The notes below the pieces were generated by a model. That model was not told the DNA's origin. It saw nothing but the letters and a program-made list of their open reading frames with translations, and made no database searches. A stretch of 64,000 nucleotides of DNA from Candidatus Omnitrophota bacterium (GTDB taxonomy: Bacteria > Omnitrophota > Gorgyraeia > Gygaellales > JAHJCI01), in the NCBI GenBank assembly GCA_016783355.1, contig JADHWR010000001.1, positions 6,072 to 70,071 of the forward strand, in the 5' to 3' direction. A program made the position numbers and the translations under genes. This document shows, piece by piece, positions 3,734 through 45,378 of the stretch; the first letter of the stretch is position 1; every line of letters starts with the position of its first letter.

Positions 3734-4204
3734 TTACCATTTAAAATGGGCAAATGCCCGATTTGCCTCAGCCATCTTATGCAAATCGTCTCGCTTTTTA
3801 ATCACTGCCCCTTCTCCCCGGAAACTTGCTACTATTTCATCAGCCAGCTTCTCTTGCATTGACTTTCCCTTTCTTCCCCGCGCAATATTTCTCATCCAAC
3901 GCAAGGCTAAAACAATACCCCTCTCCCTCCTTACCTCTGTGGGTACCTGGTAAGTAGCGCCTCCAATGCGACGAGACTTAACTTCTAATCGTGGACGAGT
4001 ATTATCTAAGACCTTAGAAAAAATCTTTAAAGCATCTGATTCGCCAAGGCGCTCTTTTGCCAACTCAAAGGCACCATAGACAATACGTTGGGCAGTGGAT
4101 TTTTTGCCATCAAGCATAACCATATTGATAAATTTACTTACTACCTTATTCTTGAACCTTGGGTCTAATTGAATTTTCTTCTCTGGTACTCTTCGCCTTC
4201 TCAT
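3734..4204 (-). CDS. rpsG: 30S ribosomal protein S7
   Basis: 156 aa. Has the DGKKS.A..IVY and [16 protein letters not shown] motifs. Confidence 0.95.
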
Positions 4205-4579: not shown

Positions 4580-7500
4580 CTAAGTTACCTTTTCCATCTG
4601 CGCCTCTCGATGTGCAATAAAGCCGGTTCCTGCAGGAATTAAATGTCCAACAATCACATTTTCCTTCAATCCATATAAAACATCCCGTGCACCACGAGAA
4701 GCAGCATCGGTCAAAACCCGTGTTGTCTCCTGGAAGCTTGCTGCAGAAATAAAGCTATCTGTGCTCAATGATGCCCTGGTAATACCTTGCAACTGTGGTG
4801 TGGCTGAAGCAGGAGTGCCGCCCTTTTTCATCACACGCTCATTCTCGGTTTTAAATCTCAATTTATCCACTAATTCTCCAGGTAAAAATTCTGTATCTCC
4901 AGAGTCTTCTATACGCACTTTCTTCAGAATCTGTCGAATAATCAATTCAACGTGCTTATCACTAATCTGCACCCCTTGTAAACGATAGACTTCCTGAATC
5001 TCATTCAAAAGATACTCTGCAAGTCTTTTGTCTCCACAAATACGCAAGATTTCCTGAAGCACAACTGGTCCATCTGTAAGCTGGTCGCCGGCGCTGACGC
5101 GGTCCCCTTTATAAACGTTGGGGTGCTTACCATGGGGCATAATATACTCACGCTCCATGCCTGTCGGTGAACGGACAATAATTATTCGTTCGCCTTTCTT
5201 GCCTTCTCCAAATTCTACAAATCCATCAATCTCACTAATTATTGCCGGATTCTTTGGTCGGCGTATCTCAAATAATTCGGCAACGCGCGGCAGACCTCCT
5301 GTAATATCATGGGTTTTGGCAATGATGCGTGGGGTCTTCGCTAAACAGGCTCCTGCATTAATCTGCTCGGTATCCTTAACTAAAACATGGGCGCCTACGG
5401 GGAGCGGATAAAGACTGAGCACATCTTCTTTCTCATCTAAAATAACAATCTGAGGATGATATTCTTGTTTATGCTCCATCACTACTCGCTCAGTAACCTT
5501 GGTTACAGGATTAAACTCATCCTCAATACTAACTCCTGGAATTAAATCCTCAAATCTAACCCGGCCAGCTACTTCTGTCAAAATCGGAGAGTTATAAGGA
5601 TCCCAATGGACAAAAGCCATTCCCTTCTCAGTCAAAGTCTTATCAGCAAAAGCAACCAGCCCTCCATAGGGTACGGTATAACGTTCAAGTTCCCGGCCTT
5701 CCTGATCATTAATACTAATTACGCCATTACGATTAAGCACAAGAAATTCTTTGCCCACCCTTACTATTTTTAAGTTATGGTAGGTTAATATGCCTTTGTT
5801 TCTTGATTTTATCGAAGAGCGCTCAATCACACGAGAAGCTGTTCCGCCAATATGAAATGTGCGCATAGTAAGTTGTGTGCCGGGTTCGCCGATACTCTGA
5901 GCAGCAATTATTCCTACTGCCTCGCCTAATTCAACCTGCTTTCCCCGGGCAAGGTCCCGGCCATAACAGGTGGCGCAAATCCCCCTTTCTGCCTCGCAGA
6001 TAAGAACACTGCGTATCCTTATCTTCTCAATACCTAAACGCTCAATAATATCTGCCTTCTCTTCAGTAATCTCTTTGCCTGCCTCAACAATAACCTCATC
6101 AGTAATAATATCAACAATGTTATCGAGGGCAGTCCTTCCCACGATACGCTCGCGAAGAGGTATAACCACCTCATCTCCTTCAATAAGTGCGCTAACTGTA
6201 ATTCCATTAAGTGTACCGCAATCCTTCCTGGTTACAATTATATCCTGAGCAACATCTACCAATCGGCGAGTAAGATATCCTGCATCAGCTGTCTTTAGGG
6301 CTGTATCAGCGAGTCCTTTTCTTGCGCCATGTGTGGAGATAAAATATTCAAGAACGGTTAAACCCTCACGAAAATTTGCTGTAATAGGAGTTTCGATAAT
6401 CTCGCCTGATGGTTTTGCCATCAATCCACGCATTCCGCAAAGCTGCCTCACCTGCAGGCGCGAACCTCTTGCACCAGAATCAGCCATCATAAAGATTGGG
6501 TTAAAGGGTGTCATTTGCGAAAAGAGATAGTCAGTAACCCTATCTGTAGCATGTGTCCAGATATCAACAACACGATTAGATTTTTCTCTCTCTGTAATTA
6601 TGCCGTCTTTATAAAGCGTATCTACTTTGTCAACCTCGTTCTGTGCCTTCTTTATAACCTCTGCTTTTTGTGAGGGAATATGCAAATCCCCAATGGCAAT
6701 CGTGATACCCCCTAAGGTGGCAAATTCAAAGCCTTGTTCTTTTATTTCATCTAACAACTGAATTGTTCGTGCGTGACCAAAGCGTTTGTAGCATTCATCG
6801 ATTATATCGGCAACCAAGAATCTATTTAATTCCCTATTTACAAATCCAAAACCCTCCGGCAGCACTTGATTGAAGATGATTCTTCCCACTGTTGTTGTAA
6901 TTAGCCCTGTTGAGTCTTTAGCCTTTCTCTCATCCAGATCATATACCTTATTGACTTTCGTCTTTATCAATTCATGTAGGTCAATTATCTTATCGTTGTA
7001 CGCAGAGAGTGCCGCCGCAGGCGTGCTAAAGATTAAATCCTTTATCTTGCCGGCAGAGCCTTGCTTGGTAAAATAATTGCAACCCAGAATGATATCCTGT
7101 GTAGGCGATGTAATCGGCCGGCCATTGGCAGGAGAAAACATATTATTAATCGAAAGCATTAAAAGCTTTGCCTCCATCTGTGATTCCAACGACAGGGGGA
7201 CATGCACAGCCATCTGGTCACCATCAAAATCAGCATTAAAAGCGGCACATACCAAGGGATGGATCTTGATTGCCTTGCCCTCAATAAGTCTTGGTTGAAA
7301 TGCCTGCATACTTAAACGATGCAAGGTTGGTGCGCGATTCAAAAGCACGGGATGGTCACTTACAACTTCCTCGAGAATATCCCAAACCTCAACCTTTCCC
7401 CGCTCAACCATTCGGCGTGCCCCCTTAATTGTATGAACAAAGCCTTTCTGGCATAACCTCTTAATAATAAATGGCTCAAATAACTCAACCGCCATCTGCT

Positions 7501-10500
7501 TGGGAAGACCGCACTCTTGCATTTTCAGTTTTGGCTCAACAACAATTACCGAACGACCAGAGTAATCTACACGTTTACCTAAAAGATTCTGCCTGAAACG
7601 ACCCTGCTTTCCTTTAAGCATATCCGCAAGGGATTTTAGGGGTCGATTATTCGCCGTCAAGACTGCGCGGCCATGTCTTCCGTTATCAAAAAGCGCATCC
7701 ACTGCCTCTTGAAGCATTCTTTTTTCATTGCGAATAATAATATCCGGAGAATTTAACTCAATCAGTTTTTTTAGACGGTTGTTGCGATTAATCACCTGAC
7801 GATATAAATCATTCAAATCAGAAGTAGCAAATCTACCGCCATCTAAAGGAACCAGAGGCCTTAGGTCTGGCGGTATAACAGGAAGAACCTCCAAAACCAT
7901 CCATTCAGGCTTGTTGCCTGACTTTTTATAATCCTCGACAAACTTAAGATTTTTTAATAACTTTCGACGAGAAAGATTATCTTTAGACTGAGCGAGGGTT
8001 TTTTTCATTCTGGCAATCAGCTCATCTAAATCTGCTTCCTTCAATAAATCCTGAATTGCCCCTGCTCCAATTTTAGAGACAAAACCTTTATGTTTTTGTC
8101 GTGCTTGTGTATTTTCCTCTTCTGGAAGAAGTTGGCCCCTTTTATACGGCGAATCGCCTGGCTCGCTCACAACGTATGCCTCATAATAAATTATCTTTTC
8201 CAACTCACGCAGCCCCAAACCCAATATGGCCGAAAGCCTGCCGGAGACAACCTTAAAAAACCAGACATGTGTTACGGGTGCGGCTAATTCTATCTGTCCC
8301 ATGCGCTGACGGCGCACCATCGAATGCGCCACGGTTACGCCGCAACGGTCACAGGTAATTCCCTTAAACTTTATACCCTTATATTTGCCGCAGTGACACT
8401 CCCAGTCCTTCGCTGGCCCAAAAATCCTTTCGCAAAAGAGTCCATCTTTTTCCGGCTTAAGCGTACGATAATTAATTGTTTCTGCCTTTCTCACCTCGCC
8501 GCTTGACCAGCTGCGAATAACCTGTGGCGAGGCGATCTTTATACCTAAACTTTCAAATTGATTTGGGTTCTCCTCCCTTAGCTCCTGCTTTTCTATACGA
8601 ATATCAAGACATAAAGCTTGTAATTCTTTCATCAATACATGAAATGACTCGGGAATTCCGGGAAAAATCCTTTGTTCTCCTTTGACAATTGCCTCGTAAA
8701 TTTTTGTCCGGCCGCTAACATCGTCGCTTTTCACGGTAAGCATCTCTTGTAAAATAAAGGCAGCGCCATAGGCCTCTAAAGCCCAAACCTCCATCTCTCC
8801 TAAGCGCTGACCCCCAAACTGTGCCTTTCCTCCTAAAGGCTGCTGAGTAACTAAAGAATAGGGGCCTATAGAGCGGGCATGAATCTTCTCCTCAACAAGA
8901 TGAATCAACTTCATCATATAAATATATCCCACAGAGATATTTTGGGCAAAGGGCTCGCCTGTATAGCCGTCAAAGAGTGTAATTTTACTATCCTCAGGTA
9001 GCCGTGCTTCTTTAAGCATTTGCCTTATTTCTTCCTCGCTTGCTCCATCAAATACAGGAGAGGCAACTTTTATACCCAGACTATGCGCTGCCCAACCAAG
9101 ATGAGTCTCTAAAATCTGGCCGACATTCATGCGCGAAGGAACGCCTAAAGGATTTAAAACAATCTCGACTGGTTCCCCCGATGGCAAAAAGGGCATATCT
9201 TCTTCTGGTAAAATTCTTGCAACTATCCCCTTATTGCCATGACGGCCGGATAACTTATCTCCCTCTTGAAGCCTGTGCTTTGTAGCAATATAGACGATAA
9301 CCTGCTTAAGAACACCGCTCGGTAATTCATCGCCCCGACGCACTGCTTCAATCTCCTGCTTCATCTGAATATCCAATGCCTTGATCTGTTCTACATAAGG
9401 CTGGTTTATCTGGTTTGTTTCAGGATACGTACTTAAATCTAAGTCTGTTAATTCCTCTCTATCTACTTTTAAAACGTCGCACAGCCGCCTCATTCTTTCT
9501 TTATTAAGGAATTCCCTCTCTTCCTTATAATATTGTTTTATCTCCTTAATTCTTTTCTGCTGGCGCAACTTCTCTTCTTTAGACTTCCTCCCTCGCTCTC
9601 GACGACTAAATTCATCAATATGCACGACGATACCTTCGATACCGGGCGGAACAACTAACGAGGTATCGCGCACATCTTCAGCTTTTTTACCAAATATTGC
9701 GCGCAAGAGTCTCTCTTCCGCAGAAAGCTCTGATTCAGTGGTCGGTGTAACCTTGCCAACAAGAATATCCCCTGGCTCAGCCCAGGCGCCAATGCGCACA
9801 ATACCATTTTCGCCAAGACTAAGCAATGCCTCTTCGCTAACATTAGGAATATCCCGCGTAATCTCCTCGTTGCCTAAGCGCGTCTCTGTGGCTTCGATTT
9901 CCAACTTCTCGATATGAATAGAAGTAAAGGCATCTTCCTTGACTATCTTTTCAGAAATCAAGATTGCATCTTCAAAATTGTATCCTCGCCAGGGCATAAA
10001 GGCCACCAATAGGTTTCTGCCCAAAGCAAGTTCTCCATCTTGGGTTGCTATCCCATCGGCAATGATCTGACCTTCTTCTACAAAATCCCCTAACAAAACC
10101 AGCGGTCTTTGATTTATGCAAGTATCGGCATTGGTGCGCAGGAATTTCTTCAATCGATAAGTCTTTTTTCCAATGATGATTGTGGAGGCATCAACAAAGG
10201 TTACCTTGCCGGCCTCTTCGGCAATCACAACTGCACCAGAATCCTCTGCTATCTTCCTTTCCATCATTGTTCCTACAAGAGGTGCCTGCGGATTAAGCAG
10301 TGGCACTGCTTGACGCTGCATATTGGCTCCCATCAATGCGCGATTGGCATCATCGTGCTCTAAAAAAGGAATTAAGGAAGCGGATATCGAAATCAATTGC
10401 TTACAAGACACATCCATAAACTCCACCTTTTTGGCCGCAAGCTTGGGAAAATCAGCTTTAAAACGACAAGATACATCCTTCTCTAAAAGATGACCCCCCT

Positions 10501-11980
10501 TATCCAAGGCAGCATTAGCCTGCGCAATCACCTTTTGCTCATCCAGATCAGCAGTTAGGTATTCAATCTGCTTGGTTGCTTTTGCGTCTTTTACTTTGCG
10601 ATAAGGTGTCTCTAATAAACCGAGGGGGTTAATCCGGGCATATGTAGTCAAGGAAGTAATCAAGCCGATGTTTGGACCCTCGGGGGTTTCTATGGGACAG
10701 AGACGGCCATAATGTGAAGAATGTATATCTCTTACCTCAAAACTGGCGCGCTCGCGCGAGAGGCCACCCGGACCCAAAGCACTCAGCCGGCGTTTATGGG
10801 TTAACTCCGCTAATGGATTTACCTGATCCATAAACTGCGAGAGTTGACCGCGTGTAAAAAAATCATGGATTTGATTGGAAAAAATTTTGAAATTTATGAG
10901 ATGGTAAATGGTTAAGTCTTCTGTCTCGCCCATCAATGTCAATCTTTCTCGAATATTACGTTCAATTCGCGCAAGCCCAATGCGCACCTGATTCTGAGCT
11001 AATTCTGCTACAGTACGTACCCGCCGATTACCCAAATGGTCGATATCATCAATCTTTCCTTTTCCCTCTTTTAAACCGATAAGATAGTTAATAACCTTAA
11101 TTACTGTTTCGTAATCAAGAACTCTTTTATCCAGAGGGGTATCCATTCCTAATTTGCGGTTGAGGATAAATCTGCCGCAGCGACTGAGGTCATACCGGCG
11201 CACATCAAAAAATAAGCGGTAAAATAACTCGGCTGCTGCCTCGGGCGTAACCGGCTCACCCGGCCGCATCTTACGGAAAAAGTCTAATAGAGCTTCTTCT
11301 TTACTCTTTGTGTAATCCCTTTGCAGTGTATTGTTAATTACTGTATTATCTTTTCCAAAAAAACTTTGAATTTCTTCATCAGAGCTTAAACCTAATATAC
11401 GCAGGATCTGTGTGACGGGAAATGTCCGTCGACGATCAATAACTGCCAATATGGCTTCTGAAATATCATATTTAAATTCCAACCATGTTCCCCGATAAGG
11501 AATAATCCTTCCATAAAAAATGCGCTTTCCTGTTATATGCGTTTCCTCTTCAAAAGAAACACCGGGAGAACGATGAAGTTGAAAGATGACAACACGCTCA
11601 TCGCCATTAATAATAAAAGAGGCAGTAGGGGTCATCAAAGGAACCTCACCAAAAAACACATCCTGTTCTAATGTCCTGCTGGCAGAGATAAATCTAAATC
11701 TTACCCATAGTGGTGCAGCATAAGTCATTCCTCTTGTTTTACATTCCTCAATATCATATTTTGGATTACCCAATACATAATTGATAAACTCAAGCCGTAT
11801 GTGCCGGCTCGGTGTTTCAATAGGAAAGAAATTAAGAAACTCTTCCTGTAATCCTGAGCATCGCCTCTCTGAAAAAGGAACATCTTTTTGCAAAAAATCC
11901 TTATAGGCCTTGAGCTGATGCCTCAGAAGATTGGGTACTGAATATACTTCCTTTAGTTTTGCAAAACTCTTTCTCTTCAA
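4580..11980 (-). CDS. rpoBC: fused DNA-directed RNA polymerase beta-beta' subunit (RpoB-RpoC in one 2466-aa ORF)
   Basis: The N-terminal ~1130 aa carry RpoB motifs (GRHGNKG, the [10 protein letters not shown] region, C-terminal [15 protein letters not shown]). The ORF continues without a stop into the RpoC N-terminus ([36 protein letters not shown], zinc motif [21 protein letters not shown]). The junction is near 8545-8600. Confidence 0.9.
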
Positions 11981-15672: not shown

Positions 15673-16326
15673 TTATTCTAAGGCCTTTAAAAGCTCCTCA
15701 CCGAACTCTTTAGCTGCAAATGGACCAGCGGCAGTAATAATATTGCCATCTCTTACTACAGCTCCCCCTGTATAGTTAGCTCCTGCTTGTTGTAACTTCC
15801 CTGCTTCACTTGACCAAACAGTGGCAGATTTACCTTTAAGTAAGCCTGCCTTCGCCAGGATTACAGGAGCAATACAAATTGCGCCAACGATTTTATTTGC
15901 GGCAGAGGCATCCAATGCAATCTTATGGGCTTTGGCATTATCCCAATAAACGCTTGCACCACTGCCACCTATAAAAACCACAGCATCAAAATCAAAAGGA
16001 CTTAGCTCTTCAATCGTTAAATCAGGCTTTATTTTTGCTCCTAACATGCCCTGGGCATAATCTTGCGTAAAAGCAGCAACCTTAACTTCACAGCCTGCAT
16101 CCTCTAAAACCTGTTTGGGAATAAGTAGCTCTTCATCTCTGAAATTTTTCTGCGCAATAATCATCACTACTTTTTTCATCTCTTGGCCTCCTGCCTGCCC
16201 CGTTAGAAACTTTGTTTTTAACGGGGCCTGCGCCCAAACAACCTTTAAGAAAAAGGCACAAAAAAATCCAACCATTAAGCAAAAAACTGTTGTCCATTTC
16301 TGAAGTAGAACAAGATTCTTATTCAA
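15673..16326 (-). CDS. DJ-1/PfpI family protein (N-terminal hydrophobic extension; alternative start at MKKVVMII)
   Basis: Has the DJ-1 core VMIIAQKNFRDEEL and the nucleophile-elbow-like AICIAP. The N-terminal 50 aa contain the 29-bp TIR element. Confidence 0.8.
   Translation of the reverse strand: MNKNLVLLQKWTTVFCLMVGFFCAFFLKVVWAQAPLKTKFLTGQAGGQEMKKVVMIIAQKNFRDEELLIPKQVLEDAGCEVKVAAFTQDYAQGMLGAKIKPDLTIEELSPFDFDAVVFIGGSGASVYWDNAKAHKIALDASAANKIVGAICIAPVILAKAGLLKGKSATVWSSEAGKLQQAGANYTGGAVVRDGNIITAAGPFAAKEFGEELLKALE
16198..16226. mobile_element. 29-bp minimal TIR element (CCCCGTTAGAAAC-ttt-GTTTTTAACGGGG) flanked by cctg/cctg
   Basis: The sequence reads cctg|ccccgttagaaactttgtttttaacgggg|cctg. 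It translates as PLKTKFLTG inside the DJ-1 ORF. Confidence 0.7.
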
Positions 16327-23529: not shown

Positions 23530-24575
23530 CCTTCGATTCCTTTCAGTAAGGCATCGGAAATCCTATCCAAATCTCCATCCAGGATTGCTTCTAATTTATG
23601 GAGGGTTAAACCAATGCGATGGTCTGTCACGCGCTGACCAGGAAAATTATATGTGCGAATCTTCTCACTGCGTTCACCACTGCCCACCTGAGTTTTTCTT
23701 TCGGAAGAACGCAAACGTGCAGTCTTCTCTTTCTCTTTCTGGAGGAGCCTCGCTCTTAATACCCTTAAGGCCTTATTTTTGTTTTTTAACTGCGAGCGTT
23801 CATCCTGGCAAGTAACAACAATGCCTGAAAACAGGTGAGTAATCCTTACTGCTGAGTCGGTAGTATTTACGCTCTGACCGCCATGACCCCTGGAGCGGAA
23901 AACATCAATCTTTAAATCATCAGGTTTAATCTCTAATTCTATCTCCTTGGGCTCTTCCAAAACAACAACTGTTGCCGTAGAGGTGTGAATACGGCCGCCT
24001 GTTTCTGTCTGAGGGATGCGCTGAACACGATGAACACCACTTTCCCATTTAAGCCGATCATAGACTCCCCTCCCACGCACAGAAAATATAATCTCTTTAA
24101 ACCCTCCTAATTCTGTAGGATGAGATGAAAGTATCTCCACCGCCCAGCTTTTCTTGAGTGCATATTTCGTATACATTCGGTATAGATCTGCGCTAAACAG
24201 CCCTGCTTCATCGCCTCCTGTTCCTGCACGTATCTCTATAATAATATTTTTCTCTATCTTCTCTTTCTCTTTCTCCTGCAGCGAATCATTGAGTTTAGAT
24301 AAGCAATGCTGGTTTTTTTTCTCTAAATCTTCGATCTCGGAATTTATCAAAGAAAGAAACTCAGGTTCATGTTTCTCCCGAAGAAGATTAATAAGCTTTG
24401 AAATCTCTTTTTTTCTTTTTTTATATTCCCGAAAAAGATACACTATGGGAGAAAGAAGACTTAACTCTTTTGCATAAAGATTGTAGCTTTGGCGATCCGC
24501 AATCACCTCATGGCTACTCATTAATTGCTCTAATTCTTCGTAGCGCTTTTCTATCTCCTCAAATTTTTTATTCAT
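23526..24575 (-). CDS. prfA: peptide chain release factor 1
   Basis: 349 aa. Has the GGQ motif ([21 protein letters not shown]) and a PxT-type tripeptide region (RIPQTE). Confidence 0.94.
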
Positions 24576-24965: not shown

Positions 24966-26267
24966 TTATTGGTTCATTGTATTTAAAAACTCCTTATTGT
25001 TCTTTGTCTTGGATAACTTCTCAATCAGTAACCCCATTGCCTCTACATTGTTTAACTCATTAAGGACCTTTCTTAAAATCCAAATCTTTTGTAACTGTTC
25101 GCCAGGAACAAGAAGCTCTTCATGGCGCGTATTGGACCTTTTAATATCGATTGCTGGATATATCCTTCTTTGAAATAAGCTTCTGTCTAATTGTAGCTCC
25201 ATATTGCCTGTTCCTTTAAACTCTTCGAATATTACCTCATCCATACGGCTGCCTGTATCTACTAAAGCAGTAGCAATTATTGTCAGACTCCCTCCTTCTT
25301 CCACTGTGCGTGCAGCTCCAAAAAAATGCTTGGGTTTCTGAAGAGCATTGGAATCTATACCGCCGGAAAGAACCCTGCCGCTGTGTGGAACAACTGCATT
25401 ATAAGCACGCGCAAGACGCGTGATACTGTCCAATAATATTACTACATCCTTTTTATGTTCGACCAATCTTTTGGCCTTTTCCAAAACCATCTCCGCTACC
25501 TGAACATGCCTCTCTGGCGGTTCATCAAAGGTAGATGAGATTACTTCACCTTTAATATTGCGCTCCATATCTGTAACCTCCTCGGGTCTTTCGTCGATTA
25601 AAAGAACGATTAAAATTGTCTCCGGATAATTACAAACGATTGCATTGCCAATCTTCTGCAATATAACTGTCTTGCCGCTGTAGGGAGGAGCAACAATCAA
25701 AGCCCGCTGTCCCCTACCAATAGGCGTAAGTAAATCCATAATACGAGTAGAAGCATCCTGGGGAGAATTTTCTAAAACAAAACGTTCATAGGGATATACC
25801 GGAGTAAGATTATCAAACAACACCCTATCTCTTGCTTCTTCAGGATGTCCGAAGTTAACAACTTCAATTTTAAGAAGGGCAAAGTATTTCTCTCCTTCTT
25901 TTGGTGGCCGGATTTGCCCGCTTACTGTATCGCCGGTTTTTAAATCGAATTTTCTGATTTGTGAAGGAGAGATATAAACATCATCCGGGCAAGGTAGATA
26001 ATTATAATTTGGAGAACGTAAAAAACCAAAGCCTTCTGGTAAAATCTCTAAAACCCCCTCCCCAAACATTAAGCCTTCCTTTTCTGCCTGTGCCTGGAGA
26101 ATTTTAAAAATAAGGTCTTGTTTTTTCAAGCCGCTTAATCCATTAACCTTAAGCTCCTTAGCAAGCTTGAGAAGCTGAGTAATCTTTAACTCCTGTAAAT
26201 GCTTGATATCTAATTTTTCTATCCTTTTATTTATGGCTTGTGTCTTTTCCATTTCTCCCCTCCTCAT
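24966..26267 (-). CDS. rho: transcription termination factor Rho
   Basis: 433 aa. Has an RNA-binding N-domain (GFGFLR), Walker A (APPYSGKT) and the [10 protein letters not shown] motif. Confidence 0.95.
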
Positions 26268-26913
26268 TTAAAACATCCCAAATCATCTTAACCTGTTTTT
26301 TTGTCTCAGATTTCGTCCCACTATTATCAATAACAAAATCAGCTAAATTTAGCTTCTTTTTTAATGGCATCTGCAAATTTATGCGCTTTTTAATTTCCGA
26401 AAGGCAAAATCCCTTTTTTTTAAGGCGCAATTTTTGAATGTCTGACCTTGCCCTTACGGCAATTATCTTATCCACGATTCTCGCCAGTCCTGCTTCGATT
26501 AATAAGGGTGCATCAATTATAATAAACTTAAAATTTCGGGCCTGCTGAATCTGTATTTTAATTTCCTTAATTATTCCTGGATGCAGAATTTCGTTGAGCT
26601 TCTTTAGGGAATGCTTATTTCTGAAAGCACTCTTAGCTAACCTTTTTCGATTAATCTGTTGATTCCTGGAAAGTATCCTTTCCCCAAATGCCGCAAGAAC
26701 CCGCCTGTAAGCCCCGTTCGAAGTAAGGCGCCCAAGGCGACTGCCCCGCCAAATTCCGTGGCGGGGACTTCTAACGGGGTAAGCCTTTTTCTTGGGCTCG
26801 ATTAACTGATGCGCAATCCTATCTGCATCAATAATCTGAGCGCCTAATTGTTTAAAATAGTGCGCGCACGTCGTCTTCCCTGTGCCAAAACTGCCGGTAA
26901 TACCAACAATCAT
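26227..26913 (-). CDS. coaE: dephospho-CoA kinase, carrying a 24-codon element insertion
   Basis: [15 protein letters not shown] has the P-loop at the likely start (26913, an ATGA overlap with the glgA stop). The [11 protein letters not shown] and LHP-type motifs are present. Confidence 0.88.
26712..26779. mobile_element. 68-bp TIR element in frame inside coaE, flanked by taag/taag
   Basis: The sequence reads taag|ccccgttcgaagt aaggcgcccaaggcgactg ccccgccaaattccgtggcgggg acttctaacgggg|taag. It encodes [23 protein letters not shown]. Confidence 0.85.
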
Positions 26914-28295: not shown

Positions 28296-30964
28296 TTAAT
28301 CTCCTCCATCTCTAACCAATTCTTACCCTTCTTTATTACTACCTTTATGGGAACAGAAAGGGCTAAGGCATTCTCCATCTCATAAGATATCATCTCAATT
28401 GCCCTCTGCAATTGCCCGTTCGGTATCTCAAAAATAAGTTCATCGTGAATTTGCAGGAGGAGCTTCGCCGAAAGCGTTCTTTCCTCAATCTTCTGATATA
28501 TCTTAATCATCGCCATCTTAATTAAATCTGCTGCCGAGCCTTGGATGGATGAATTTACTGCCTGCCTTTCGGCAAATGCACGAACTGCGGCATTCTGATG
28601 ATTAATGTCAGGGAGATAGCGATGGCGACCTAAAATAGTTGTTACAAAATTGTCTTTTTTTGCCTTTTCAATCTGCCTGGCGATATAATCTTTTACTCTG
28701 GGATACCTTAAAAAATAGGCATCAATAAAGCGAGTTGCCTCCTCCCTTGAAATTCCTAATTCCCTTGCTAAACCAAAGGAAGATAGACCATAAATAATTC
28801 CAAAATTTATGCGCTTTGCTACTTCTCGCATCTGATCATTGACAATAGAATCCTCTGTGCCATAAACTAAAGAGGCAGTGGCACGATGTATGTCTTTGCC
28901 TTGCGAAAAAGCATCAATCAGCACCTTCTCGCCTGATAAATGTGCCAGAACCCTTAATTCTACCTGAGAATAATCAAAAGAGACCAAAAAATTATCCTCG
29001 CAACTCGTGATGAAAGCCTTTCGTATCTTGCGCCCTAACTCTGTCTTAATCGGTAGATTTTGCAAATTAGGATTAGAGGAGCTCAGTCTTCCCGTCTGTG
29101 TTCCTGTTTGATTGAAGAATGTATGAATGCGCAGGGTTTTTTTATCTGCCAGTTCCATTAAGGCATCGATATAAGTAGATTTTATTTTACAAAGCATACG
29201 ATATTCCAATAAAATTTTTGGTAAGGGATGCTGGCTTGCTAAGACAGCAAGAACCTCCTCATCGGTAGAGGCGCCTGTCTTTTTCTTTTTTATCACCGGC
29301 AGTTTTAATTTCTCAAAAAGAACCTGACGTAGCTGTAAGGGTGAGTTGATATTAAACGGCCCACCAGCAAGATGATAAATTTTACTGACCAGGCCTTTGC
29401 GCTTTTCTTCAATTTCAATGCCCAAGGCTTTAAGAAACTCTAAATCAAGCTTTATACCCTCTAATTCCATCTGCGCTAAAACAGGAATCAAGCGAATCTC
29501 TAAGTCGCAAAAGATGCGAAAGCTATCTTTAAGCTTTAGTTCTTTCTCTAAAACCGACTTAAGTGTTCCAATAACAACACAAACCTCAAGTGGACTTATC
29601 TTTCCTGCCCCGTTCGAAGTCCCCGCCGTAGGCGGGGCAGTCGCCCCGGGCGTCTTACTTCGAACGGGGCCTGCATCCAAAATTCTCTTCAGATAATCCC
29701 AGCACAGGCTCTCAAGACTATAATCAGACCGGGACGGATTCAAAAGATAAGCAGCAATCATCGTATCAAAACCTAACCCTTCTAGGGCGATATTATGCCG
29801 GGCTAATCGCAAAAAGATATCTTTTAGATTGTGGCCGATTTTCTTAATCTTTGGGTCTCTAAGGACAGGTTCAATGCTCTTTAAGGAGCCTTTCTCTAAT
29901 TCTAAAAAAGAATCACTCTCTGGAAGATAAACTGTCAACCCCTCCTCATTCATATAGAGAATCAACTCACCTGCCTGCCTAAACTGATCAATCCCGGCAA
30001 CCTGCCTGTTGGCACTTCGACGGAGTTTATCCCGAGCGAAGTCGAGGGACTCAGTGCTAGCACTCCGACTTCGCTCAGTGCCAACCCTGAGCTTGTCGAA
30101 GGGTTGCTCAGGTAAATCTTTAAGAAATTTTTTAAATTCTAACTCACGAAAGATTTCATAAAGATTTCTATAGTCAGGCTTCTTTATCTTTAAACTTTGC
30201 GCATCAAATTCTATATCTAAATCTGTCCTTAATTGTGCAAGATAATGACATAGTTTTATTTGCTCAATCTTTTCTTTCAAGCGAGAACGAAGCTTTTGTT
30301 CTTTTATCTGATCCAAATTCAATAAGAGATTTTCCAGAGACTTAAATTTATCCAGGAGCTTGGTGGCGGTCTTTTCTCCTATGCCAGGAACACCCGGGAT
30401 ATTATCAGCTGTATCTCCGGCAAGAGCAATAAAGTCAGCAATTCTGCCGGGTAAAAATCCGTATTGGCGCTTAACCCCTGCCACATCATAAATTATCTTT
30501 TTGTCTTTATGAGGATGCAGAACAATAACTCCCTCATCCACTAATTGCAAGATATCCTTATCAGCGCTGACAATCATTATTGTAAAATCCTTCTCTTTTG
30601 CCTTCCTGGTTAATGTCGCAATAACATCGTCTGCTTCAAAGCCCTCCTTCTCAAATATATTAATTCCAAAGGCCTTGATTATCTTTTTAATGTAAGGCAG
30701 TTGAGTCACTAAATCCGCAGGCATAGGAGGACGTTGTATCTTGTAACGCGCAAATTCTTTTTGGCGAAATGTGTGCCTTGAGACATCAAAACATACACCC
30801 ATATACTGCGGATTTATCTCTTTTAAAACCTTATTCAGAAAATTCACAAAGCCATAAATAGCATTGGTACAAAGACCGTAAGAGGTCGCAAGCCCCCTTA
30901 TGGCATAATAGGCGCGGTAACAGATGCCGTTGGCATCAATAAGTACTACTTGGGCTTTATCCAT
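28292..30964 (-). CDS. polA: DNA polymerase I, carrying two different in-frame repeat insertions
   Basis: 890 aa. Has a 5' nuclease domain (GIPGVPGIGEKTA), pol motif A (SFDYSQVELRVLAH), motif B (RR.AK..NFGIIYG) and motif C (QIHDELIFE). Confidence 0.95.
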   Translation of the reverse strand: MDKAQVVLIDANGICYRAYYAIRGLATSYGLCTNAIYGFVNFLNKVLKEINPQYMGVCFDVSRHTFRQKEFARYKIQRPPMPADLVTQLPYIKKIIKAFGINIFEKEGFEADDVIATLTRKAKEKDFTIMIVSADKDILQLVDEGVIVLHPHKDKKIIYDVAGVKRQYGFLPGRIADFIALAGDTADNIPGVPGIGEKTATKLLDKFKSLENLLLNLDQIKEQKLRSRLKEKIEQIKLCHYLAQLRTDLDIEFDAQSLKIKKPDYRNLYEIFRELEFKKFLKDLPEQPFDKLRVGTERSRSASTESLDFARDKLRRSANRQVAGIDQFRQAGELILYMNEEGLTVYLPESDSFLELEKGSLKSIEPVLRDPKIKKIGHNLKDIFLRLARHNIALEGLGFDTMIAAYLLNPSRSDYSLESLCWDYLKRILDAGPVRSKTPGATAPPTAGTSNGAGKISPLEVCVVIGTLKSVLEKELKLKDSFRIFCDLEIRLIPVLAQMELEGIKLDLEFLKALGIEIEEKRKGLVSKIYHLAGGPFNINSPLQLRQVLFEKLKLPVIKKKKTGASTDEEVLAVLASQHPLPKILLEYRMLCKIKSTYIDALMELADKKTLRIHTFFNQTGTQTGRLSSSNPNLQNLPIKTELGRKIRKAFITSCEDNFLVSFDYSQVELRVLAHLSGEKVLIDAFSQGKDIHRATASLVYGTEDSIVNDQMREVAKRINFGIIYGLSSFGLARELGISREEATRFIDAYFLRYPRVKDYIARQIEKAKKDNFVTTILGRHRYLPDINHQNAAVRAFAERQAVNSSIQGSAADLIKMAMIKIYQKIEERTLSAKLLLQIHDELIFEIPNGQLQRAIEMISYEMENALALSVPIKVVIKKGKNWLEMEEIK
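29608..29669. mobile_element. 62-bp TIR element in frame inside polA, flanked by cctg/cctg
   Basis: The sequence reads cctg|ccccgttcgaagt ccccgccgtaggcgggg cagtcgccccgggcgtctt acttcgaacgggg|cctg. It encodes PVRSKTPGATAPPTAGTSNGA. Confidence 0.85.
30011..30108. repeat. Palindromic 'FDKLRV'-type repeat inserted in frame in polA
   Basis: It contains gagcgaagtcg...agtgctagcact...cgacttcgctc and accctgagcttgtcgaaggg. The same words occur in the tandem arrays at 31007-31200. It encodes PFDKLRVGTERSRSASTESLDFARDKLRRS. Confidence 0.75.
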
Positions 30965-31006: not shown

Positions 31007-31071
31007 CCTCGACTTCGTCCCTCGACTTCGTCCCTCGACTTCGTCCCTCGACTTCGTCCCTCGACTTCGCT
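31007..31071. repeat. 13-bp tandem repeat x5 (cctcgacttcgtc)
   Basis: Four perfect copies plus one variant, read directly from the sequence. Confidence 0.9.
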
Positions 31072-31200
31072 CGGGACGACCCTGAGCTTGTCGAAGGGTC
31101 GCTCGGGACGACCCTGAGCTTGTCGAAGGGTCGCTCGGGACGACCCTGAGCTTGTTGTCGAAGGGTCGCTCAGTGTCAATCCTGAGCTTGTCGAACGGAT
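31072..31200. repeat. 32-bp tandem repeat x3 plus a partial copy (cgggacgaccctgagcttgtcgaagggtcgct); each unit has a GACCCT...AGGGTC hairpin
   Basis: Units lie at 31072, 31104 and 31136 (the third has a 3-bp tgt insertion). A partial copy follows as cctgagcttgtcgaacgg. Confidence 0.9.
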
Positions 31201-31207
31201 TGAATTA

Positions 31208-32152
31208 TTAGTTTTTAGGGGTTAATTCCGTGGCTATCTTTTCTAAAGTCTGCTTTGCAGTTACAATATCATCCTGCTCATAGAATCTGATCGCATCTTG
31301 AAACTTGGCCTGCATAATAGCGATGTGTTCTTGTTTTTGTTTTTCTTTAATCTCTTTATTTATTTTATCTATTAAGGTCAAAAATGAGTCTCTGTCTGAC
31401 GGGTCCAAAGAAATGGCTAACACCAGTGCATTTTTTGCTTCCTCTATTTTGTGCTCTTCATATAAATCATCAGCCAGTTCCTTAAGTTTTTGAATCTCTT
31501 TTAACTCTGTTAATCTGACTGCCTTTTTATGAATGGCGAGCTCACGCACTAAACTAAGCGTCTCTTCCTCTATCAACTCCTGCTGAAGAGAAGGCTGAGT
31601 CTCTGCGATGGCCTGGCGTCTGCGTTTCGCCCACTCCACCCAAGACTCACCGGGAATTCCCAATTCTATACGTTTTTTCCAATAATCAAAAGCCTTCTTT
31701 AGTTCTCTTTTTTGCTCATAAAGCATAGCTAAATTTGAATATAAATTATGATACTGGGGATTTAATTTTAGTCCAACTAAATAAATCTTCTCTGCCCTAT
31801 CAAGTAAACCCTTGGCCTCAAACATAATTCCTAAATCATTGTAAGCAATAACATAAGCAGGGTCTAACTCAATTGCCTTCTGATAACAGACTGTGGCACT
31901 ATCTAAATCACCGCGCTGCTGAAACTGCAAACCTTGACTTCGAAGAAGACGTGCCTCTTTTTGAAAAGTAGTTTGTTTCTGCGCAAAAAGTGAGGTTGGG
32001 AAACAGAATAAGTTAATTGTTATAAATAAATTAATTGCTACAAAAGAGATAATTCCCTTTGTAAACCCCGTTCGAAATTCCTCCAATCTTTGCTTAAGGC
32101 TTAATGATACATAAGTAGCCGAGGCTTTTGAATCTATCTTAAATCTATGCAT
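31208..32152 (-). CDS. TPR-repeat protein with signal-peptide-like N-terminus; current start codon lies inside a TIR element
   Basis: TPR-like repeats (A...Y.KAIELDP..., NLG..FE..G....A...Y...L.L.P). The hydrophobic segment IISFVAINLFITINLFCFPTSLFA follows. Confidence 0.75.
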   Translation of the reverse strand: MHRFKIDSKASATYVSLSLKQRLEEFRTGFTKGIISFVAINLFITINLFCFPTSLFAQKQTTFQKEARLLRSQGLQFQQRGDLDSATVCYQKAIELDPAYVIAYNDLGIMFEAKGLLDRAEKIYLVGLKLNPQYHNLYSNLAMLYEQKRELKKAFDYWKKRIELGIPGESWVEWAKRRRQAIAETQPSLQQELIEEETLSLVRELAIHKKAVRLTELKEIQKLKELADDLYEEHKIEEAKNALVLAISLDPSDRDSFLTLIDKINKEIKEKQKQEHIAIMQAKFQDAIRFYEQDDIVTAKQTLEKIATELTPKN

Positions 32153-32171
32153 ATCTAAATTTCGAACGGGG
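32066..32171. mobile_element. 106-bp TIR element (no ORF of its own) inserted in the 5' end of the TPR gene, flanked by taaa/taaa
   Basis: The sequence reads taaa|ccccgttcgaaat...80 bp...atttcgaacgggg|taaa. It supplies the ATG (32152) and the first 29 codons of the present TPR ORF. Confidence 0.85.
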
Positions 32172-32433
32172 TAAACCCCGTTCGAAATAGGAAACGCTTT
32201 AATCTATCGTTCAAATAGCGTTTACCCTTTCCAGACTTCAGGTGTTTTTCTCTACTCATTGCATCATATTTATTTAGACAGGCTTCATAATAAATAAGCT
32301 TAAAGGGGCCTCTATTCTTAGTAGAAGACACCTTTCCTGAATTATGCTCACTAAAGCGTTTCCGTAAATCATTCGTTAAGCCTGTATACCATTTTTTATC
32401 TTTCTGGCTTTGAATTACATAAACATAATGCAT
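32155..32433 (-). CDS. small GIY-YIG nuclease family protein (YhbQ/UPF0213-like)
   Basis: 92 aa. MHYVYVIQS....WYTGLTNDL.KR..EHN.GK matches the GIY...YIG-type motifs (YVY / WYTG), a conserved Arg and E..HN. The C-terminal FRTGFTPFEI is encoded by the TIR junction. Confidence 0.85.
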   Translation of the reverse strand: MHYVYVIQSQKDKKWYTGLTNDLRKRFSEHNSGKVSSTKNRGPFKLIYYEACLNKYDAMSREKHLKSGKGKRYLNDRLKRFLFRTGFTPFEI

Positions 32434-32454
32434 TGCTTGTTATTTCGAACGGGG
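32176..32454. mobile_element. 279-bp TIR element whose cargo is the complete GIY-YIG gene, flanked by taaa/taaa
   Basis: The sequence reads taaa|ccccgttcgaaat...253 bp...atttcgaacgggg|taaa. The 13-bp TIR is perfect. The GIY-YIG ATG sits 8 nt inside the right TIR. Confidence 0.85.
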
Positions 32455-39282: not shown

Positions 39283-40440
<1,158 letters not shown>

Positions 40441-43287: not shown

Positions 43288-45378
43288 CTATAGTTTTCTT
43301 GCTATCTTCTCAATTTTATAGCCTTCCATTATATCGCCTATTTTATAATCAGAAAAATTACCTATGGATATGCCGCACTCATAACCTTCAGATACCTGAG
43401 AAACCTCATCTTTAAAACGCCGAAGATTGCTAATCTTTCCGCTAAAGATAGTAGTGTTGTCTCTGATTATATCTATATTGAGCGTGCGCAAGATCTTACC
43501 CTTAGTTATAGTACACCCCGCCACAACACCACTTCGCGAGAGATTAAAAACCTGCTTCACGCGTGCCTGTCCAAAAGATACCTTTTTTATCTTTGGGCTT
43601 AACAACCCTTCTAAAGCCGCCTTTATCTCCTCGACTAATTCATAAATTATATTGTATGTCCTTACCTCCACCTGCTCTTTTTTAATTAATTCCTTTGCTC
43701 GCTCTTCTATATTTATATGAAAACCCAAGATTAGCGCATCAGAGACAGACGCCAGCATTACATCTGAAGTGTTAATTAAGCCCACTCCTTTATGGGTTAT
43801 CTTAAATTTTACCTCTTTTGTCTCTAATTTTATTAGAGAATCCCGCACCGCCTCTAATGAGCCGAATGTGTCTGCTTTAATAATAATCTTCAGCTCTTTA
43901 AGAACACCGTTTTTTATTTCCTGATGTAAATCCTCCAGCGAAAACCGATGTGGTGAAATATTCCTTTTTTCCTTTGTCTCGCGCAGCGAGATAAGTGCTC
44001 TTGCCCCTTTCTCGTCCTTGACAACAAAAAATCTCTCTCCTGCCTCAGGCACGGATTCAAAACCTAAAATTCCCACAGGCTGACTGGCAGTAGCTTCCTC
44101 AACTCTCTGGCCACAGTCATTAAATATTGCCTTTACCTTTGCTAAGTTCTTCCCCGCAACAAGTAGATCATTAAGATGTAATTTTCCATTCTGCACCAAT
44201 AAAGTTGCCAGAGGACCCCTGTTTGGGTCCTGTCTTGCCTCAATAACAACACCCCTTGCTATCTGATTATAATCTGCTTTCAATTCTAACATTTCTGCCT
44301 CTAAAAGAATCATCTCTAATAATTCATCTATGCCCTGACCGGTTTTGGCAGAAACCTCTACCGTTACGGTCTTGCCTTGCCACTCCTCAGGAACTAAACC
44401 AATATCAGCAAGTTGCTTCTTTACCCTATCTACGTTAGCCTGAACTCGATCAACTTTATTTATGGCGACAATTATAGGAACCTCAGCATCTCGGGCATGG
44501 TTAATTGCCTCAATTGTCTGAGGCATAACACCATCATCAGCAGCAACCACTAAAACAACAATATCTGTAATCTGTGCGCCCCGTGCACGCATTGCCGTAA
44601 ATGCCTCATGACCGGGTGTATCCAAAAATGCAATCTTACCCTTATCTAAATTAACCTCATATGCACCGATGTGCTGGGTTATGCCTCCATGTTCAAAATC
44701 AACGACCTTTGTCTTTCTAATCATATCCAAAAGGGAGGTCTTACCATGGTCAACATGACCCATAAATGTTACTACGGGTGGACGAACATTTAAATCCTGA
44801 GGCTGGCTTGATACCTCATGTAAGGAAAGCAGGCGTTCTTCTAAAGAGGGAGCCTGCTTGACTTTAAAGCCAAAATTCTCACAAACCTGCTCTACTTCAT
44901 CTTTTCCTAAAGATTGGTTAATGTTGGCTAGGATTTTTAACTTTAAAAGTTCCTGCATTAGCTGCGAGAGTTTAATTTGAAGCTTAACCGCTAAATTCTT
45001 AACAGAAATAGGGAAATCTAATTCTAATACCTTAGCTTGTGGCGCCTCTTCAACCAAAATTGCTTGTAGCTGCTGGGGTTGAGGCTCTAAGGTCTTTGCT
45101 TGAATTTTAGACTTGCGGGAGACTCTTCTCTTTGGTTTAGGGGCTATTTCTTTCCTCTTGATTTGCTTTTTGCCTGGCTCTTTTCGTAGGACCGCAGGCT
45201 TTTTTGCTTTCCTTGCCCCGTTTGAAATCCCTCGCCTAACGGCGGGGGCAGCTACCTTTGGTGTCTTACTTCGAACGGGGTTTGGCTTTGTAGAGGAAGC
45301 CCTTAAGCGAGTCTTTGAAGCCTTTCTCACTTTAGTTTTTAATGCTTTTGGTTTCTTAGGTTTTTTTATCTTTTTCAT
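43288..45378 (-). CDS. infB: translation initiation factor IF-2, carrying a 23-codon element insertion in the basic N-terminal region
   Basis: 696 aa. Has the G domain [21 protein letters not shown] and NKVD. Confidence 0.94.
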   Translation of the reverse strand: MKKIKKPKKPKALKTKVRKASKTRLRASSTKPNPVRSKTPKVAAPAVRRGISNGARKAKKPAVLRKEPGKKQIKRKEIAPKPKRRVSRKSKIQAKTLEPQPQQLQAILVEEAPQAKVLELDFPISVKNLAVKLQIKLSQLMQELLKLKILANINQSLGKDEVEQVCENFGFKVKQAPSLEERLLSLHEVSSQPQDLNVRPPVVTFMGHVDHGKTSLLDMIRKTKVVDFEHGGITQHIGAYEVNLDKGKIAFLDTPGHEAFTAMRARGAQITDIVVLVVAADDGVMPQTIEAINHARDAEVPIIVAINKVDRVQANVDRVKKQLADIGLVPEEWQGKTVTVEVSAKTGQGIDELLEMILLEAEMLELKADYNQIARGVVIEARQDPNRGPLATLLVQNGKLHLNDLLVAGKNLAKVKAIFNDCGQRVEEATASQPVGILGFESVPEAGERFFVVKDEKGARALISLRETKEKRNISPHRFSLEDLHQEIKNGVLKELKIIIKADTFGSLEAVRDSLIKLETKEVKFKITHKGVGLINTSDVMLASVSDALILGFHINIEERAKELIKKEQVEVRTYNIIYELVEEIKAALEGLLSPKIKKVSFGQARVKQVFNLSRSGVVAGCTITKGKILRTLNIDIIRDNTTIFSGKISNLRRFKDEVSQVSEGYECGISIGNFSDYKIGDIMEGYKIEKIARKL
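45216..45280. mobile_element. 65-bp TIR element in frame inside infB (flanks cttg / tttg)
   Basis: The sequence reads cttg|ccccgtttgaaat ccctcgcctaacggcggggg cagctacctttggtgtctt acttcgaacgggg|tttg. It encodes PVRSKTPKVAAPAVRRGISNGA. Confidence 0.8.

Follow-up and report, generated by a model that had tools for sequence, protein, structure and literature searches.

The 64-kb stretch examined here, which we call the window (contig JADHWR010000001.1 of the Candidatus Omnitrophota assembly GCA_016783355.1), contains a gene for dephospho-CoA kinase, coaE, with a short, GC-rich palindromic element in its coding sequence. The gene product matched PF01121 (2.5e-44) and TIGR00152 (154.5 bits, cutoff 65.55), its P-loop reads GSFGTGKT, and an identical protein in NCBI is annotated as a Candidatus Omnitrophica dephospho-CoA kinase. 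The features of the gene and its insert, with positions counted from the first nucleotide of the window, are as follows.

26227-26913, minus strand: coaE (dephospho-CoA kinase) coding sequence, 228 amino acids with the insert, PF01121 and TIGR00152
26708-26711: left copy, TAAG, of the target site duplication (TSD), identical to 26780-26783
26712-26779: 68-bp GC-rich palindromic element in coaE, 66% GC, resembling a transposable element of the miniature inverted-repeat kind (MITE)
26712-26724: left terminal inverted repeat (TIR), CCCCGTTCGAAGT
26744-26766: inner 8-bp GC stem, CCCCGCCA / TGGCGGGG, kept in the polA and infB copies described below
26767-26779: right TIR, ACTTCTAACGGGG, complementary to the left TIR at 12 of 13 positions
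26780-26783: right copy, TAAG, of the TSD

The interval 26708-26783 reads as TAAG, 68 bp and TAAG, and the 4-bp duplication is perfect. The two 13-bp TIRs (CCCCGTTCGAAGT and ACTTCTAACGGGG) pair at 12 of their 13 positions, and the 68-mer, which also holds two inner GC stems, occurs once in the window where shuffled sequence gave an expectation of 0. Its GC content (66%) stands apart from that of the other 615 nt of coaE (38%) and of the window as a whole (41%), and so the first-pass annotation, made from the sequence alone, was right in calling the insert much richer in GC than the gene around it. Together with one TAAG the element amounts to 72 nt, or 24 codons, with no stop in the host frame, and the only open frames of the 68 bp are those in which the host gene can be read through. 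The 24 encoded residues are rich in Arg, Gly, Ser and Pro, and five of them are Arg.

The PF01121 and TIGR00152 matches on CoaE were each broken in two exactly at the insert. When the protein was compared with the E. coli CoaE structures 6ari, 1n3b and 1vhl, residues 2-44 corresponded to chain positions 4-46, and residues 72-202 to chain positions 50-180, a net excess of 24 residues, which was also obtained with the Aquifex structure 2if2. Excising the 68 bp and one TAAG in silico left an intact coaE ORF (open reading frame) of 204 amino acids. The first-pass annotation had described a 68-bp element that adds 24 codons, had stated that E. coli CoaE has nothing at this position, and had predicted that deleting the element with one TAAG would restore a gap-free alignment; all of this is borne out, and its translation of the region around the insert was exact. 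It had also proposed an alignment of CoaE orthologs, and had considered that the idea would fail if close relatives free of TIR copies carried the same 24 residues. In a search of 5.8 billion protein clusters, the segment was absent from 119 of the 119 nearest CoaE homologues, which are mostly from Omnitrophota and at most 56% identical after gap removal; no relative carries the residues, and the nearest is only ~50% identical. An independent assembly in ENA, ERZ24794679, encodes the identical 228-amino acid CoaE, so that the insert is not an assembly artefact. The TIRs, the TSD, the contrast in GC content, the 24 additional residues and their absence from 119 homologues together identify the 68-bp segment as an insertion, and sequence comparison confirms that the 24 residues form a separate inserted segment, absent from E. 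coli CoaE and from every homologue retrieved.

An AlphaFold2 model of CoaE, built with 53 homologues, had a mean predicted local distance difference test (pLDDT) score of 89.5 and a predicted template modelling (TM) score of 0.82. Only residues 44-63 fell below a pLDDT of 50, and this stretch forms an unstructured surface excursion between helices 30-37 and 65-76; whether the residues form such an excursion was the question for which the first-pass annotation had suggested modelling the protein. Compared by Foldseek with solved dephospho-CoA kinases, the model gave target-normalised TM scores of 0.75-0.88, and none of the 17 residues found invariant in the alignment of 53 homologues had been lost. 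Judged from the model, coaE looks functional, with a floppy extra loop. One CoaE homologue, P0104, has an unrelated insert of seven residues (STVHGPR) in the same inter-helix loop, which seems to be generally permissive to insertions.

The ends of the coaE element recur in the window. The end motif was found 15 times, compared with 2.8 times expected, a count reached in none of 100 shuffles, and the 15 motifs define seven elements in the 64 kb, of 29, 68, 62, 106, 279, 29 and 65 bp. The six elements other than that in coaE, and one empty target site, are listed here.

16198-16226: 29-bp copy in the 5' untranslated region of a DJ-1/PfpI gene, ~8 nt upstream of its Shine-Dalgarno sequence, TSD CCTG
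29608-29669: 62-bp copy, in frame in polA, amino acids 432-453, GPVRSKTPGATAPPTAGTSNGA, TSD CCTG
32066-32171: 106-bp AT-rich non-coding copy, in tandem with the GIY-YIG element, one TAAA common to both
32176-32454, minus strand: 279-bp coding copy, ends CCCCGTTCGAAAT...ATTTCGAACGGGG, TAAA flanks, sole ORF that of a GIY-YIG protein of 92 amino acids (32155-32433)
39867-39895: 29-bp minimal copy (two ends and 3 nt), in frame in tgt, amino acids 178-188
45216-45280: 65-bp copy, in frame in infB, amino acids 33-55, NPVRSKTPKVAAPAVRRGISNGA
24571-24575, minus strand: empty target site ATGAA (prfA start codon), filled by a 106-bp copy in ERZ24794679

The copies in coaE, polA and infB align over their full length, with the coaE copy in the opposite orientation, relative to its host gene, to the other two. 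All four intragenic copies in the window (coaE, polA, tgt and infB) are a multiple of three in length when the 4-bp duplication is included, all are free of stops, and in all of them the reading frame has the same register with respect to the ends, which yields x-PVR(S/N)...(T/I)SNG-x; whichever way the ends are turned, two of their frames are open. Solved TGT structures have a gap where the tgt insert lies. No intrinsic terminator or promoter was found in the coaE element, and a search of Rfam over 25.5-33.5 kb (E <= 1) placed no family on it.

Elements arranged head to tail with one common 4-bp repeat (...AACGGGG TAAA CCCCGTT...) were seen at 32066-32454 of the window and in four loci elsewhere (L012, L021, L032 and L053), an arrangement that suggests insertion beside an existing end, or a tandem intermediate. 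Essentially every long ORF of the window lies on the minus strand, including one of 2466 amino acids at 4580-11980. The spacer between polA and a TPR gene (31007-31195) holds two tandem arrays, one of a 13-bp unit repeated 4.8 times and the other of a 32-bp unit repeated 3.9 times; the second of these is shorter by one unit in ERZ24794679, and contains a weak, sub-threshold match to Guanidine-II that is probably due to chance.

Evidence of mobility came from the flanks of the elements and from a second assembly. Perfect 4-bp direct repeats flanked 45 of 101 elements in genome loci, compared with 3 of 101 in a shifted control, and 85 of the 126 short elements in a metagenome sample; the consensus of the duplicated site is roughly TNNA (TGAA, TTTA, TAAA, TTCA). 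Over 4.3 kb, ERZ24794679 is 99.9% identical to the window, and it carries in addition a 106-bp copy at the ATGAA of prfA (L201, 4340-4453). The filled site reads ...GTA ATGAA CCCCGTTAGAAAT...CGAACGGG ATGAA TAAAAAA, and the empty site at 24571-24575 of the window reads ...GTAA ATGAA TAAAAAA. The prfA copy is 92% identical to the 106-bp copy at 32066 of the window, and since the two differ at 8 positions, the prfA copy is not an assembly chimera of the other. Because the prfA site is polymorphic for presence and absence of the element, the family has moved recently within this population; this polymorphism is the most direct evidence of mobility. Just upstream of the prfA insertion point there are three small sequence differences. 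An apparent loss of the GIY-YIG element from two sister assemblies (L202 and L204), seen in gene tables, was rejected, as the scaffold has a run of 100 N there.

Going beyond the first-pass annotation, the family to which the coaE element belongs is tied to a GIY-YIG gene that lies at a distance of 5.4 kb, and is found widely in different phyla. The 92-amino acid product of the 279-bp copy matched PF01541 over residues 1-71 (3.3e-19, 69.4 bits, cutoff 22.6) and has no accessory domain. Conserved positions in an alignment with 27 relatives are Y3, Y5, Y16-T17-G18, R26, H30-N31 and E50, and a profile of the family matched the UPF0213 structures 1zg2 (E = 7.7e-11) and 1ywl (E = 8.1e-5). The closest relatives are 70-79% identical, mostly exactly 86 amino acids long, and come from Patescibacteria, Omnitrophota, Planctomycetota, Desulfobacterota, Nitrospirota, Chloroflexota and one Woesearchaeota archaeon. 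This identity across phyla, set against the ~50% seen for CoaE mostly within a single phylum, points to horizontal spread of the GIY-YIG elements. Relatives were found in at least 579 stretches of prokaryotic contigs representing one genome per species, and the gene is multicopy in some genomes. Carriage by phages was considered and rejected, as none of the 2.9 million viral contigs of IMG/VR contained a relative of the protein, and the spread across phyla is not obviously phage-borne.

For the relatives of the GIY-YIG protein, 80 genomic loci were retrieved, and 1.29 Mb of sequence was scanned for pairs of ends; the sampled loci were chosen by way of the GIY-YIG gene or the short elements, and are therefore biased against other partners. 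In these 80 loci, 60 genes lie in units that measure 271-287 bp and run between (C/T)CCCGTTAGAGA and TCTCTAACGGG(G/A), an architecture met with in Patescibacteria, Omnitrophota, Planctomycetota, Desulfobacterota and an archaeon. In these 60 loci, as in the window copy, the end repeat itself supplies the last three or four codons of the nuclease (...LTG). Consecutive left-to-right end pairs were less than 330 bp apart in 275 of 278 cases, and in the 1.29 Mb no larger unit with a conventional transposase was seen between the same ends.

The full-length elements showed a recurrent relation to start codons. In many cases, elements with T...A termini lie exactly at host ATGAA (or ATGAG, ATGGA) start codons, in the following loci.

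~position 4000 in most: start-codon insertions in L007, L019, L021, L022, L036, L043, L056, L059, L061, L065, L069, L074, L077 and L079

At these sites the last A of the element and the duplicated TG restore the host ATG, and the stop codon of the nuclease overlaps the rebuilt ATG (ATGA), an overlap that suggests translational coupling. Among the 60 GIY-YIG elements, 22 rebuild an ATG and 17 have an ATG 5 nt upstream (host start-codon site); the flank supplies a stop codon directly after the element in 44 of the 60, and five form in-frame fusions of the type MNPVRE...-GIY-YIG. In four loci (L001, L003, L026 and L052), the insertion is at the codons for G-F-T in N-termini that resemble those of type IV prepilins (GFTLIEI...), and the end of the element read in frame 2, (G)FTPFEI, resembles the prepilin motif, which may reflect a target preference or mimicry. 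In L076 (4156-4202), a GIY-YIG gene of this family itself carries a mini-element of 47 bp, inserted in frame (GPFELIYYEAC-PVRNDRYRWHLISNG-ACVDKQDA).

The best explanation of the interval at 26708-26783, to which we give a probability of about 0.85, is that it consists of a miniature inverted-repeat element of the non-autonomous kind and of the TAAG duplication made when this element inserted into coaE. This reading is carried by the TIR anatomy with its duplicated target, by the recent mobility of the family, by the read-through that preserves the frame and by the location in a predicted surface loop. The 24 residues would be translated, and would form a disordered loop at the surface of CoaE, between its second and third helices, that the enzyme tolerates, and selection would keep intragenic copies only if they preserve the frame and lie in loops. 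The GIY-YIG nuclease may move coding and non-coding copies alike by cutting hairpins or cruciforms formed by the palindromic ends. This role is suggested by the GIY-YIG gene being the only gene found between these ends, with its reading frame interlocked with one of them, and by the activity of eukaryotic Slx1 relatives, which cleave branched and hairpin DNA (PMC1564403 and the Slx1 literature), structures that the near-perfect palindromes could extrude.

Several points weigh against this account. The insertion event in coaE is deduced from anatomy and from distant homologues, and was not seen directly; the protein search, in which no homologue exceeded ~56% identity, found no insert-free coaE allele, and no metagenome search for an empty coaE was made. 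We infer from sequence that the insert is translated and that CoaE is an active enzyme, and a second, uninterrupted coaE may lie outside the 64-kb window. The other points concern the engine of the family, where we likewise infer that the GIY-YIG protein is the mover. We know of no GIY-YIG protein that acts as a transposase. Known GIY-YIG homing enzymes leave 2-nt overhangs, and a 4-bp duplication is unexpected from them. Finally, within a locus the end sequences of coding copies did not co-vary significantly with those of non-coding ones (mean identity 5.8 versus 5.7 of 9 positions, p = 0.33).

That no GIY-YIG transposase is known and that the ends did not co-vary significantly also favours the alternative that a conventional transposase, encoded elsewhere, moves the short elements, with the GIY-YIG protein carried along as a passenger or acting as a helper of the homing type. 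Duplications of 4 bp are typical products of DDE-type integration, and the bias in the sampled loci lowers the chance of seeing other partners. Against it, none of the end pairs in the 1.29 Mb beyond the 275 closely spaced ones bounds a recognisable larger element, and the GIY-YIG frame always ends inside the end repeat, in units of a fixed length (271-287 bp), across phyla. We consider this alternative less likely than not but a live one, and it concerns the engine of the family only, leaving the reading of the coaE insert unchanged. That the 271-287-bp units are autonomous transposable elements, with the 86-92-amino acid Slx1-like GIY-YIG nuclease as the sole enzyme that they encode, is in turn a tentative proposal, which we hold at less than even odds.

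A different possibility is that the DNA contains the element and the protein does not, either because the mRNA loses the hairpin by excision or because the ribosome hops from the first GCT-TAC to the second. Bypassed inserts, such as those of T4 gene 60 and the mitochondrial byp GC clusters of yeast, are GC-rich, form hairpins and have matching flanking codons in AT-rich genomes, and the coaE element is likewise a GC-rich palindrome in an AT-rich gene, with the TSD placing the identical codons GCT TAC on both sides. Its RNA folds into a single long hairpin (-39 kcal/mol), although this energy is only modestly better than that of shuffles (z = -1.97). Inserts of the bypass type, in contrast, break the frame or carry stops, and the hallmark of programmed bypass, a disrupted frame or a stop directly after the take-off codon, was not seen in the coaE insert, which has no stop after the putative take-off codon and matches no Rfam family.

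The behaviour of the family in coding sequence also bears on this possibility. The frame was preserved by 65 of the 126 short metagenome elements, when one third was expected (p = 1.8e-5). Each element was then excised in silico with 4 bp, and its depth in the restored ORF was counted in codons. Elements at least 100 codons deep made up 12 of the 103 frame-preserving copies and 0 of the 96 non-preserving copies (p = 2.7e-4), and at a depth of at least 60 codons the counts were 18 of 103 and 2 of 96. Eight further host ORFs were bona fide housekeeping genes.

Housekeeping hosts: CCA-adding/poly(A) polymerase, XerC/D, epimerase, polyprenyl synthase, PrmC, radical-SAM lipoyl-synthase-like protein, TrmD, TrpRS

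All of the deep copies elsewhere, like the four intragenic copies of the window, are multiples of three and free of stops. Length and stop content therefore matter, which implies that the inserts are translated rather than removed or bypassed, and makes excision or bypass of the coaE element improbable. We conclude from these distributions that the inserts are most likely translated, and that frame-breaking copies would be removed by selection. In L156 (~2233-2300, with a second site ~40 codons downstream), an ORF of ~950 amino acids resembling formate dehydrogenase/NuoG carries two in-frame elements, NPVRNSSRALNPAAGQRGSISNG and NPVRNDGALNTPLSERYLNSEYGSSPLLSRNGGTNG.

There is similarly little chance that the insertion has inactivated coaE, making it a recent pseudogene whose function comes from another gene copy, a host or a partner organism. 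The second coaE that might lie beyond the inspected 64 kb would allow this, and some Omnitrophota are thought to be host-dependent. However, the ORF is intact and keeps every one of the invariant residues, the model is confident and CoaE-like outside the loop, and the insert lies between helices. The identical allele is present in the independent assembly, and similar inserts in the essential genes polA, tgt and infB would be unlikely if they were inactivating. Finally, it is highly improbable that the 24 residues are a lineage-specific functional loop, evolved in place or exapted (for example as an Arg-rich binding surface), rather than selfish DNA: although the segment has 5 Arg in 24 residues and sits in the helical sub-domain that binds CoA, the same DNA occurs in opposite orientation in polA and infB and in unrelated genes elsewhere, it comes with TIRs, a TSD and a foreign GC content, and no homologue shares the loop, which is predicted to be disordered.

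The coaE element has most of the features by which MITEs are recognised: it is shorter than ~300 bp and lacks a transposase gene, it has TIRs and a TSD of fixed length, and its family has dispersed copies with evidence of mobility. Known MITEs such as Correia/NEMIS, ERIC and the Coxiella QMITE (PMC10969869, PMC5896051) are likewise small and multicopy, with TIRs, TSDs, no transposase gene and occasional in-frame copies. Classical MITEs, however, are deletion derivatives of insertion sequences of the DDE type, whereas the coding relative here is an 86-92-amino acid GIY-YIG nuclease; the ends of the coaE element are common to units of ~280 bp that encode only this nuclease, which is not an established class of transposase.

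The closest parallel in placement is with the Rickettsia palindromic elements (RPEs), palindromes found in frame in Rickettsia housekeeping genes and compatible with protein fold and function (Ogata et al., 2000, as summarised in PMC10969869). The coaE, polA, tgt and infB copies share with RPEs the character of short selfish palindromes that are in frame in unrelated housekeeping genes and compatible with the fold. As described in that summary, RPEs are ~100-150 bp long, confined to Rickettsia and without a known coding partner, whereas the elements here are 29-128 bp long, have 13-bp TIRs and 4-bp TSDs, occur in many phyla and have ends in common with a GIY-YIG gene. We therefore treat the coaE element as an analogue of RPEs and not as a member, the two being compared by description and not by sequence.

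Repetitive extragenic palindromes (REPs) and their associated tyrosine transposases (RAYTs), described as REPtrons (PMC3733652), also combine dispersed GC-rich palindromes with one small gene between inverted copies, and with an enzyme proposed to act on hairpins. The RAYT enzyme, however, is of the HUH/Y1 type, and the REPs themselves are found outside genes and bear a GTAG or CGTC tag. The elements described here have a GIY-YIG gene, CCCCGTT ends without a GTAG or CGTC tag, and many intragenic copies, so that they do not belong to that group.

The GIY-YIG protein itself is a minimal catalytic domain that falls by profile with the UPF0213/YhbQ Slx1-like proteins. The structures 1zg2 and 1ywl were placed in a prokaryotic group of stand-alone Slx1-like proteins, seen as vertically inherited housekeeping proteins (Dunin-Horkawicz et al., PMC1564403). 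In contrast, the gene described here lies between TIRs and TSDs, some genomes have several copies of it, and its identity between phyla is 70-79%. The GIY-YIG homing genes (I-TevI, Seg) resemble it as selfish nuclease genes with horizontal spread, but their enzymes have long DNA-binding domains and one cognate site, and the genes have no inverted ends and no non-coding derivatives. The 92-amino acid ORF was accordingly rejected as a homing endonuclease, as it consists of the catalytic domain only, scored 20 bits against TIGR01453 (cutoff 56), and is associated with TIRs and many targets. A search of the full-text literature, made in part with the literal end sequences, turned up no account of a GIY-YIG-partnered family, an absence that is no proof of novelty; the family is apparently widespread and undescribed.

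These results indicate that essential genes of streamlined, uncultured bacteria (coaE, polA, tgt and infB here, and trmD, trpS, prmC and xerC elsewhere) are remodelled by selfish DNA that is read through, which has been documented so far mainly in Rickettsia. As a mini-element in frame, the coaE insert adds a further case to a phenomenon that is rare but known, and the link to a GIY-YIG gene is the new part. Such inserts inflate protein lengths and split domain matches, and can mislead the annotation of metagenome-assembled genomes as well as phylogeny. If the GIY-YIG protein does move the elements, then stand-alone proteins of the UPF0213/YhbQ/Slx1-like group would gain a function, at least in this clade, and a structure-specific nuclease with 13-bp hairpin ends would make up a very small new transposition system that could be tested in vitro. 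If the 271-287-bp units are indeed autonomous, they would be smaller than any other autonomous mobile element known and would form an enzymatic class that is new among prokaryotic transposons, spread over Patescibacteria, Omnitrophota, Planctomycetota, Desulfobacterota, Nitrospirota and DPANN archaea, with mini-derivatives adapted to life inside coding sequence.

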